Assembly: GCA_029262065.1 (NCBI GenBank)
Contig: JAJDAC010000044.1
Span: 66,827-130,826 of the forward strand
DNA: 64,000 nucleotides
Origin: Candidatus Krumholzibacteriota bacterium
GTDB taxonomy: Bacteria; Krumholzibacteriota; Krumholzibacteriia; JAJRXK01
Direction: 5' to 3'
The notes under the pieces were generated by a model that saw only the letters and a list, made by a program, of their open reading frames with translations, made no database searches and was not told the DNA's origin. Made by a program: the position numbers and the translations under genes. This document shows positions 52,588 through 53,892 of the stretch, in pieces (within the stretch, counting starts at the first letter, position 1; each line of letters opens with the position of its first letter).

Positions 52588-53892
52588 ATGGTCATGAAAA
52601 CTGCTCTCACACTCGTCGGTTGCTTCGCCATTTGCATGGCCACGGCGACAACGTCCACCGCGCGCGTGTTGGTGGAGCACGTGAACATCCAACAGGTAAA
52701 TCAGAATTTCCGCGGGGCTGCCCTCACACTGGGCAGCGTCACGATCAATGCGCCGTCCGCCGGCAAGGTGCTCGTCCATTTCGACGGCAATTGCGTGTCG
52801 TCTGCGGGCGACAGGATTCTCCTGGCGGCCAGCAATACCACGAGCTGGTCGGTCAACGATGGTCACACGGCGGTCGAGGCCTACGACAGTGACGTCAACC
52901 GACACTCCTTTTCCCACACACGCTCGTATAACGTCGGCGCCGGTTCCACCACCTTCTATGCAGTGGGGCAGAACTTCGTGGAAACCGATGGCAGCGGTGT
53001 CGCGTCGGTGTACGCCTCGCTTACCGCCAAGTTCTATCCCAATCTCGGCACCGACGACGCCTTCTATCAGCACACTGGCGTGATCGAGGTAAACAGGCAG
53101 ATCGACGGGGCTGTGCAAGCGATTGCCCAGCTCGACATCTCCCCGAGCGTCCCTGGCGATGTGTTGGTGCGCTTCAACGGCATGTGCGTTTCCGATCCCG
53201 GCGATCTGATCGTGATCGCGGCGAGCAATAATGTGGGGTGGACCGTCAATGACGGCAACACCGGCACCGAGGCCATTGACAACGACTTGAACACGCGGGT
53301 ATTCGCTCATTCACGCCAGTACAGCGTGGGAGCCGGCACGCACACATTCTATGGCGTGGCTCAGAACTTCGTGGAGACAGCCGGCGATGGCAGCGCCTCC
53401 TTCTACGCTAGTCTCACCGTCGAATTCTTCCCGTCCACCCGAAACTACGCGCGTCTGGACCATGTGGGCGTGGCCCAAACCAATATCGACGTGGAGGGGG
53501 CGCCGGTGACCATGGGCCAGCTGTCCATCGTCGCGCCGGCTGACGGCAAGGTCGTGGTCCGGTACGAGGGACTGTGCGCGTCCAGCCCCGGTGATCGCGT
53601 CGTCATGGCCGCAAGCAGCGTTCCCGACTGGAGTTCCAATGCCGGTAATGTCAACGTGGAGGCCATCAGCGCGGACCTGAACTACAACAATTTCTCTCAC
53701 ACCCGCGTGTACGACGTAATCGCCGGGAACCATACCTTCTACGCCGTCTGCGAAAACTTCGTGGAAACGACCGGCAACGGCATAGCCAGCAACTACGCGA
53801 GTTTCAGCGTTGAGTTCTTCGCCGATCCCACGGCGACCCCGACCGAGAAGATTTCGTTCGGTGACTTCCGGTCCCGGTTCGGCGGTCAGTAG
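52588..53892 (+). CDS. secreted protein composed of three tandem ~133-aa repeats of an uncharacterised domain
   Basis: Signal peptide MVMKTALTLVGCFAICMATATTSTA. Repeats at roughly 52666-53042, 53043-53435 and 53436-53823, each with G.C.S..GD.....AAS....W..N.G....EA...D.N...F.H.R.Y.V.AG..TFY.V..NFVET.G.G.AS.YAS..VEFF. Followed by a canonical terminator. Confidence 0.7.
   Translation: MVMKTALTLVGCFAICMATATTSTARVLVEHVNIQQVNQNFRGAALTLGSVTINAPSAGKVLVHFDGNCVSSAGDRILLAASNTTSWSVNDGHTAVEAYDSDVNRHSFSHTRSYNVGAGSTTFYAVGQNFVETDGSGVASVYASLTAKFYPNLGTDDAFYQHTGVIEVNRQIDGAVQAIAQLDISPSVPGDVLVRFNGMCVSDPGDLIVIAASNNVGWTVNDGNTGTEAIDNDLNTRVFAHSRQYSVGAGTHTFYGVAQNFVETAGDGSASFYASLTVEFFPSTRNYARLDHVGVAQTNIDVEGAPVTMGQLSIVAPADGKVVVRYEGLCASSPGDRVVMAASSVPDWSSNAGNVNVEAISADLNYNNFSHTRVYDVIAGNHTFYAVCENFVETTGNGIASNYASFSVEFFADPTATPTEKISFGDFRSRFGGQ

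Follow-up and report, generated by a model that had tools for sequence, protein, structure and literature searches.

A 64,000-nucleotide (nt) stretch of DNA from a Candidatus Krumholzibacteriota bacterium (GenBank assembly GCA_029262065.1, contig JAJDAC010000044.1, positions 66,827 to 130,826), referred to in its full length as the window, encodes an apparently exported protein that consists almost entirely of three tandem repeats. Each repeat is predicted to fold as a jelly roll of the TNF/C1q type, and the three are predicted to pack together in a pseudo-trimer. It is fairly probable that the protein serves as a single-chain, pseudo-trimeric, TNF/C1q-like binding head that acts in the manner of an adhesin or a lectin. 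The sequence family and its natural architecture are new; already known are the TNF/C1q fold, the functional theme and the notion of C1q-type domains in tandem. Relatives and their loci are cited by P and L numbers, and residue numbers throughout are those of the 434-amino-acid (aa) form of the protein.

The repeats are three tandem units of about 125-128 aa. Pairwise BLASTP comparisons give 50-51% identity across 120-122 aa (E values of 7e-45, 3e-44 and 2e-41), and a three-way MAFFT alignment has 48 invariant columns, with repeats 2 and 3 each 47-49% identical to repeat 1. A hidden Markov model (HMM) of the family finds three matches in the open reading frame (ORF), with i-E values of 7e-58, 2e-52 and 5e-54; run against all ORFs of the window it matches only this one, so the window holds no paralogues. 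The similarity of the repeats is far beyond chance. A preliminary description, drawn from the DNA and its translations, had recognized the three tandem repeats and taken the triplication to be old, and both readings hold. The unit boundaries that it placed at 53043 and 53436 are each one base off frame, and the in-frame second and third units run from 53062 to 53445 and from 53452 to 53829. The age of the triplication shows in the divergence of the DNA: nucleotide identity between repeats is 55-58%, identity at third codon positions is only 43-50%, and the longest exact matches are 11-14 nt.

The repeats can also be compared by position across proteins. Repeat 1 is 80% and 73% identical to the same-position repeats of P0002 and P0003, and repeat 3 is 71% and 68% identical to those of P0002 and P0004. 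Overall, the window repeats are about 70-80% identical to the same-position repeats of the nearest relatives, as against 47-49% to each other. Because same-position identity across proteins exceeds identity within the protein, the three units have evolved separately in this clade, and the pseudo-trimer would be asymmetric. Across the whole family, same-position identity (0.49-0.54) is scarcely above different-position identity (0.50). In P0102, P0087, P0009 and P0034 the internal repeats are 81-93% identical, compared to about 50% in the window protein, which suggests gene conversion or renewed triplication in some lineages. The short entries P0159 and P0195 may be assembly collapses of near-identical repeats.

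The fold was predicted with AlphaFold2, with a model of the whole protein built from a 120-sequence alignment. The model has a predicted local distance difference test score (pLDDT) of 94.2 and a predicted template modelling score (pTM) of 0.91, and shows a compact all-β body with eight DSSP strands per repeat and inter-repeat linkers of about 5-8 residues. Repeat 2 modelled alone reaches a pLDDT of 94.9. As modelled, each repeat is a compact Greek-key jelly-roll β-sandwich of about 125-140 aa, the form that characterizes the C1q/TNF superfamily. When the whole model is compared to the PDB with Foldseek, the top three matches are all engineered single-chain trimers: 4dou (adiponectin), 5hkj (the C1q head) and 4zch (APRIL-BAFF-BAFF), with E values of 1e-11 to 9e-9 and template modelling (TM) scores of 0.50-0.62 over the full length. 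The remaining matches of the whole model have TM scores of at most 0.27-0.33.

For a single repeat, the best PDB match is the lectin BC2L-C-Nt of Burkholderia (TM 0.61, 17-19% identity), followed by PLTL of Photorhabdus (TM 0.65). The list consists mostly of C1QL, C1q, 4-1BBL, CD40L, RANKL and TNF-like lectins, at a probability of 1.00 and TM scores of 0.5-0.65, and it includes C1QL1-3, 4-1BBL, C1q heads and the TNF-like domain of chlamydial Pgp3, as well as phage receptor-binding knobs (the phi812 central spike, the phage 1358 receptor-binding protein and cyanophage A4). Judged from the models, the relation to BC2L-C-Nt is at the level of the fold only. Among the predicted viral structures of BFVD, the whole model has matches of TM 0.67-0.71 to uncharacterized proteins from Caudovirales and giant viruses, and the annotation of one match reads C1q domain-containing protein; natural single-chain versions therefore probably exist in viruses too.

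The preliminary description had proposed AlphaFold modelling as a check for a pseudo-trimeric fold, and such a fold is what the model predicts. The three protomers would stand round a threefold axis with their N- and C-termini together at the base, given the pTM of 0.91, the superposition on single-chain trimers, the short linkers and the copy numbers found in relatives. A domain that forms trimers is expected to occur in one copy per chain, with homotrimerization, or in three or six. The complete proteins that were inspected have three or six repeats, or one C-terminal repeat behind a trimerizing stalk. Most of the best 150 proteins of an exhaustive profile search have three matched repeats and one has six. 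That one, P0121 (854 aa), holds two full pseudo-trimers in tandem, as predicted, followed by what looks by eye like a dockerin-like calcium-binding tail, for which there is no Pfam match. The restriction of complete proteins to copy numbers of 1, 3 and 6 lends independent support to the trimer.

Apparent departures from these copy numbers were set aside. All 12 of the two-repeat matches inspected are fragments, truncated mid-repeat or frameshifted; P0159, with two identical repeats, looks like an assembly collapse rather than a natural two-repeat form; and P0128, scored with four repeats, really has three, one of which was split by the HMM.

The sequence family is small and sharply bounded, and the window protein is not an orphan. 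A word-indexed search that covered 5.8 billion proteins returned at least 223 homologues. Analysis was carried out on the top 120, all of which have E values below 1e-108 and 85-100% query coverage, with all three repeat segments present in 120 of 120. The exhaustive HMMER search, in which a profile of 83 single repeats was run against 1.84 billion representative proteins, gave 236 matches at E <= 1e-3, of which 210 are at E <= 1e-10. By these searches the family would comprise a few hundred clusters at 50% identity. Named members come from Saprospiraceae, Bacteroidales, Chitinophagales, Carboxylicivirga, Candidatus Eiseniibacteriota and Krumholzibacteria, and a genome scan with a single protein found five loci, four in Saprospiraceae and one weak match in Flavobacteriaceae. 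P0027 (three repeats) and P0121 are named 'ribosomal protein L31' by JGI, an evident annotation error.

The domain had been called novel at the outset, a claim to be refuted by confident assignment of the repeat to a known domain. On that measure the claim stands for the sequence; it falls for the fold, which is of the TNF/C1q type. Searches of Pfam-A and NCBIfam at E<=10 with the whole protein and each repeat gave noise only. Profile searches of PDB sequences with 3-sequence and 83-sequence repeat profiles gave a best E value of 0.17 and no C1q or TNF chain. When BC2L-CN, its query sequence checked against the PDB, was itself used in a phmmer search of the PDB, it found only itself and PLTL. 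No earlier description of the three-repeat family was found in literature searches.

In relatives with a single repeat, the repeat lies at the very C-terminus, and the sequence typically ends ...FFPxRY. P0243 and P0237 consist of a signal peptide, a collagen G-X-Y stalk (PF01391) and the C-terminal head, and the shafts of P0222, P0240 and P0243 have PHROG tail-fibre matches. Some single-head relatives have weak SLH-like N-termini; assignment to SLH was rejected, as the matches fall under the gathering threshold. P0222 (686 aa) is encoded in an extracellular contractile injection system (eCIS) locus, directly after genes for gp25-like, large baseplate and Tail_P2_I proteins and before eCIS_core, which is the eCIS tail-fibre slot. 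Locus L010 (1-14075; JGI 3300005261 contig Ga0071345_1000378) is a complete-looking eCIS, with gp19 tube, CIS_tube, spike, PAAR, gp25, baseplate and eCIS_core genes, and its tail-fibre gene has a single copy of the domain at its end.

Such tail-fibre-like stalks, one of them in an eCIS locus, together with the viral proteins that share the predicted triple architecture, could mean that the window gene is itself phage- or eCIS-derived and still part of a virion or tailocin. This is hardly credible. The gene has no phage or eCIS genes near it, its neighbours encoding surface proteins, a β-lactamase-family protein and a kinase; its product starts with a predicted Sec signal peptide, and relatives carry sorting domains of the type IX secretion system (T9SS). 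Against PHROGs there are only two marginal, short-segment matches, to families with no assigned function (E 4e-4 and 2e-3), and a scan of viral contigs with the eCIS-fibre relative P0222, not with the window protein, was empty. The window protein has neither a tail or baseplate gene cluster nor an N-terminal baseplate-attachment or shaft region, and P0222 has both.

The three-repeat relatives are mostly built for surface display. A C-terminal T9SS type A sorting domain (PF18962) or its FlgD_ig-type equivalent (PF13860) is present in 106 of the 120 closest homologues and in none of the complete single-head fibres inspected. P0012-14 and P0020 instead end straight after repeat 3 and have lipoprotein leaders with clear lipoboxes (...SSCGDD). 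Other homologues have additional display modules (FG-GAP, BACON, Fn3, CARDB and dockerin); P0123 has, in addition to its three repeats, Ig-like domains, Dockerin_1 and a FlgD_ig C-terminal sorting domain (CTD), and P0055 has a PEP-CTERM-like tail by eye, with no Pfam match. No member of the family has an enzyme domain.

The window copy differs from most of these at its C-terminus. Its leader (residues 1-25) is hydrophobic, with residues 3-18 modelled by AlphaFold2 as an isolated helix of lower pLDDT, and homologues have equivalent signal or lipoprotein leaders. The signal peptide is likely cut after A-T-A or S-T-A. The leader contains a lipobox-like L-V-G-C, whose cysteine is at position 10 in the 432-aa form, with the hydrophobic helix running on beyond it; the motif seems too near the N-terminus to be convincing as a lipobox. 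The C-terminal tail, which matches neither PF18962 nor PF13860, sits where about 88% of close homologues have a linker and T9SS sorting domain. The tail is similar to the beginning of the linker in CTD-bearing relatives (FFADP.A...SF.D), which suggests that the window copy has lost its CTD.

Computation yielded the repeats and their family, the fold and pseudo-trimer as predictions, the architectures and the gene contexts; from these we infer a binding function, a site for it, and the orientation and localization of the head. A binding head is favoured because of the fold, whose closest bacterial examples are glycan-binding lectins, the distal position of the single heads, the surface display and the lack of a catalytic module. 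The protein would be exported by the Sec pathway, and its three diverged copies of about 125 aa would each form a TNF/C1q-type jelly roll and pack about the pseudo-threefold axis into a single bell-shaped body. It would thus be a natural single-chain counterpart of the heads that C1q, adiponectin, TNF ligands and bacterial TNF-like lectins form as homotrimers. In the single-copy relatives, the stalks would force trimerization, and the domain would be a trimeric distal head, the part of the fibre that touches the target, because single copies sit C-terminally on trimerizing stalks, including in the eCIS tail-fibre slot. In the three-repeat lineage, the trimer would be fixed in one chain, usually with one T9SS sorting domain, such that one complete head is displayed per exported molecule. 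Plausibly, the single-chain form exists so that a complete head travels with one sorting domain, a causal link that is speculative.

A glycan or another surface ligand would be recognized in the inter-repeat grooves or at the apex, on the side away from the termini. With the divergence of the repeats, the three grooves would have ceased to be equivalent. The window copy may act in soluble form, periplasmic or released, given the loss of its anchor.

Several observations weigh against a binding head of this kind. The pseudo-threefold geometry is drawn from the pTM and from Foldseek TM scores of 0.5-0.7, with root-mean-square deviations of 5.7-10 Å. Neither C1q (PF00386) nor TNF (PF00229) is found at E<=10 with the whole protein or any repeat, and hhalign of the repeat profile with BC2L-CN gives a probability of 0.2% and an E value of 0.28; common descent with C1q, TNF or TNF-like lectins does not appear to be supported by sequence. 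The window copy seems to have no anchor, with no CTD and no convincing lipobox. No conserved gene neighbourhood for any pathway was found at four homologue loci, which have no shared neighbours. Finally, the family is unusually conserved for an adhesin, at 45-69% identity between Krumholzibacteria-like and Bacteroidota proteins, loops included. Such conservation is a hint that the ligand is conserved, perhaps self or housekeeping, or that the role is structural, and speaks less for arms-race recognition.

The structural role can be made explicit: the protein could be a passive unit of a surface layer, a capsule scaffold or a periplasmic lattice, with no specific external ligand. The high cross-phylum conservation of the sequence, loops included, the weak SLH-like N-termini of some single-head relatives and the lack of conserved partner genes all fit an envelope protein of this sort, which has a modest chance of being the right answer but is on balance unlikely. 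The single heads are at distal fibre tips, including that of the eCIS tail fibre, which is a recognition position; dockerin, BACON, FG-GAP and Fn3 modules are typical of proteins for binding or display; and the gene is monocistronic, with no sign of lattice-forming partners.

Residue conservation was examined in 359 repeats. The invariant or nearly invariant residues are G59, F65, G67, D75, A80, A81, W87, F108, H110, R112, Y114, G119, N129, G135, G137 and Y142. Entropy by structural element shows β3, β4, β6, β7 and β8 to be conserved and β1, β2, several loops and the linkers to be variable. The conserved strands include stretches that are conserved on both faces (F-S-H-T-R in β6, A-A-S in β4 and F-Y-A in β7). 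By the usual TNF strand mapping, β3, β6 and β8 would correspond to inner-sheet strands C, F and H, and the pattern fits, on the model, a buried pseudo-trimer core with variable outer strands. The conservation of the F-S-H-T-R strand on both faces would be better explained by packing of the trimer core than by a surface site. The family has one conserved arginine, R112 (95%) in F-S-H-T-R; comparison with the Thr/Arg and Ser/Arg of the lectin fucose site gave no reliable residue-level alignment.

The preliminary description had suggested that the conserved cysteine, histidine and acidic residues of each repeat form a metal or ligand site, which would make the protein a metal-binding or catalytic one. 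In its favour, 358 of the 359 repeats have H110 and 357 have D75, and C69 is present in 89%. Three cysteines coordinate zinc in TRAIL, and the trimer axis is a Ca2+-binding site in the heads of C1q and C1QL, with C1QL3 Asp mutants among the structural matches. However, cysteine occupancy is uneven: 93 proteins have three conserved cysteines, 14 have two, 10 have one and 2 have none, and in 24 of the 119 it is missing from one or two repeats, with glycine, alanine or serine instead. This occupancy makes an obligatory three-cysteine site unlikely. Residues E97, D102 and E132, which are 89-91% conserved, lie in loops that the strand order puts at the apex and are conserved in the three-repeat clade only; single-head relatives do not keep them and often have alanine at the cysteine position. 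Moreover, the only enzyme folds matched are PHM and PNGase F, at TM <= 0.33, and no enzyme family is found in Pfam or NCBIfam. A metal-dependent or catalytic function thus has a slim chance, and by analogy with C1q and C1QL a Ca2+ site at the apex is possible.

The neighbouring gene for a membrane Ser/Thr kinase with TPR repeats (56275-58899) offers another explanation, in which the window protein would be a TNF-like signalling ligand sensed by that kinase. A Pkinase gene does lie within a few kilobases of the three-repeat gene in the window and in loci L001 and L003. The kinases are nonetheless not orthologous, being 29-34% identical in the catalytic domain only, a level close to that seen with the second kinase paralogue of the window, and the β-lactamase neighbours are likewise unrelated (24%). 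The kinase and β-lactamase synteny that seemed to recur across the three loci was therefore rejected on these BLASTP values. Since such kinases are frequent, with two in the 64 kilobases, and no kinase is found at the single Bacteroidota locus examined, a signalling ligand is very improbable. The two kinases of the window, 11630-14260 (+) and 56275-58899 (+), are membrane Ser/Thr kinases and paralogues of each other; both have a long TPR region, and they share 32% identity across about 780 aa.

The three-repeat gene is one uninterrupted frame on the + strand, from ATG 52588 to the stop codon at 53890-53892 (434 aa). The ATG at 52594, which gives 432 aa, is the likelier start, because the identical 432-aa database protein P0001 begins there and GAAGGA lies 6 nt upstream. 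The coordinates are collected in the table. The initial suggestion that the product is exported and CTD-less is in line with the signal-like leader, seen by eye and in the model, and with the 20-aa tail that has no PF18962 or PF13860 match. The gene was also said to have a strong terminator of its own, which is confirmed by a GC-rich hairpin of 12 base pairs (bp) and T run about 70 nt beyond the stop codon: the folded 61-nt segment has an energy of -26.6 kcal/mol (z = -5.2), none of 200 shuffles folds as well, and a pattern scan picked up a shorter form of the terminator.

Table. Features of the three-repeat gene and its product (positions in the window; HMM, hidden Markov model)
Feature	Position	Strand	Basis
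Probable Shine-Dalgarno-like GAAGGA, 6 nt 5' of ATG 52594	52582..52587	+	Read by eye
Coding sequence of three-repeat protein, 432 aa plus stop	52594..53892	+	P0001 identical; sole window ORF matched by family HMM
Likely Sec-type signal peptide (MKTALTLVGCFAICMATATTSTA)	52594..52662	+	By eye; lone helix in model
Repeat 1, residues 27-156, predicted 8-strand TNF/C1q-like jelly roll	52666..53055	+	Alignment, model, HMM
Repeat 2, residues 159-286, predicted 8-strand TNF/C1q-like jelly roll	53062..53445	+	Alignment, model (also modelled alone), HMM
Repeat 3, residues 289-414, predicted 8-strand TNF/C1q-like jelly roll	53452..53829	+	Alignment, model, HMM
C-terminal tail (TATPTEKISFGDFRSRFGGQ), 20 aa, predicted disordered, pLDDT 45-51	53830..53889	+	Model and tail comparison
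Intrinsic terminator: 12-bp GC-rich hairpin (53965-53993), then TTTTT	53965..53997	+	Folding compared to shuffles

The proposed head can be set beside several known systems. The engineered single-chain trimers 4dou, 5hkj and 4zch likewise combine three TNF/C1q jelly rolls in a single chain, with short linkers between them and a closed trimer-like body. They are, however, laboratory constructs from animal genes with 8-12% sequence identity to the window protein, whereas the window gene is natural, bacterial and made of ancient repeats that are about 50% identical. BC2L-C-Nt of Burkholderia cenocepacia and PLTL of Photorhabdus laumondii are bacterial and are the best single-repeat matches (TM 0.61-0.65). 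TNF-like lectins have trimeric jelly-roll heads that bind ligands at protomer interfaces (PMC12914763, PMC3164656), and they bind fucosylated glycans via Thr/Arg and Ser/Arg from two adjacent protomers (PMC12914763). BC2L-C-Nt and PLTL are homotrimers of one-domain chains, in contrast to the one chain here.

The gC1q heads on collagen stalks, as in C1q, adiponectin and the CTRPs, and C1QL, have the same layout as P0243 and P0237. A gC1q-type head on a collagen stalk is also found in Bacillus BclA. The window protein differs from such heads in that it belongs to a separate sequence family with no match to PF00386, is stalkless and has all three protomers in one chain. C1q domains have been catalogued as receptor-binding domains of eCIS tail fibres (PMC12923769), to which P0222 corresponds as an eCIS fibre whose head is C-terminal. 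The Pam3 tail fibre contains a TNF-like domain (PMC9608196). Some mollusc C1qDC proteins, such as HcC1qDC6 of 444 aa (PMC5519582), are natural, of similar size and composed of three C1q-type (gC1q) domains in tandem, but they are eukaryotic, recognizable as C1q by sequence and implicated in immunity. T9SS type A cargo is represented by 106 of the 120 closest homologues, and FlgD_ig-type CTDs are present in at least four further proteins of the window, although the window protein itself has no sorting domain.

Other genes of the window are described here in their own right. The window looks Krumholzibacteria-like, with a Dxr that is 65% identical to a protein from Krumholzibacteria. Proteins with FlgD_ig-type C-terminal sorting domains are encoded at 4134-7388 (+), 15131-17515 (-), 38389-40173 (+) and 43674-45014 (-), one of them with a legumain-like Peptidase_C13. 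A 2440-aa surface protein, whose gene at 45094-52416 (-) and the three-repeat gene are transcribed divergently, contains CBM96, CARDB and three DUF11 domains; its C-terminus resembles by eye a FlgD_ig/T9SS-type sorting domain (...YPNPFAAGRELTNFAF...), with no Pfam match at E<=1e-3. Predicted surface cargo is unusually abundant in the window, yet the sorting domain is missing from the three-repeat protein. A 96-aa cysteine-rich ORF (53997-54287, +) starts at the end of the terminator (...HDCSAIPGEFHVPGCDMERCPSCGGQAIVCGC...); it looks zinc-ribbon-like, with no Pfam match, and has no counterpart beside the homologues in L001 or L003. The region 22731-36055 encodes two molybdopterin enzymes of the xanthine-dehydrogenase/CO-dehydrogenase type (large subunits, FAD subunit and XdhC), two CN-hydrolases, two PALP enzymes and one amidohydrolase, and looks like a catabolic island for N-heterocycles of the purine, pyrimidine or nicotinate type. 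The 411-aa ORF at 9734-10969 (+) has an HNH endonuclease domain at its C-terminus only and is otherwise unassigned.

A more far-reaching version of the binding head supposes that the triple architecture solved a secretion problem, that its three inter-repeat grooves, no longer bound by symmetry, diverged into non-equivalent sites and made it a multi-specific receptor-binding module, and that anchor-less copies such as the window protein are soluble TNF-like ligands or opsonin-like factors in a Krumholzibacteria-like bacterium. Its probability is small. If it were true, an obligate homotrimeric fibre head would have been fused so that a single T9SS sorting domain exports and anchors the complete head, and prokaryotes would offer a parallel both to engineered single-chain TNF ligands and to soluble C1q-type pattern-recognition proteins.

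For the family as a whole, a group of proteins without a Pfam, NCBIfam or literature entry is now defined and is placed, by prediction, in the TNF/C1q fold. One domain appears to be put to two uses: on collagen, phage-like and eCIS fibres it would form homotrimers at the tip, and on T9SS cargo a natural pseudo-trimer within one chain. This makes it a new candidate receptor-binding module for research on T9SS and eCIS. Its members may provide protein engineering with natural single-chain trimer scaffolds that have short native linkers. The family would also be a clean case of the passage from a symmetric oligomer to an asymmetric single chain, and the lineages with 81-93% identical repeats suggest concerted evolution.

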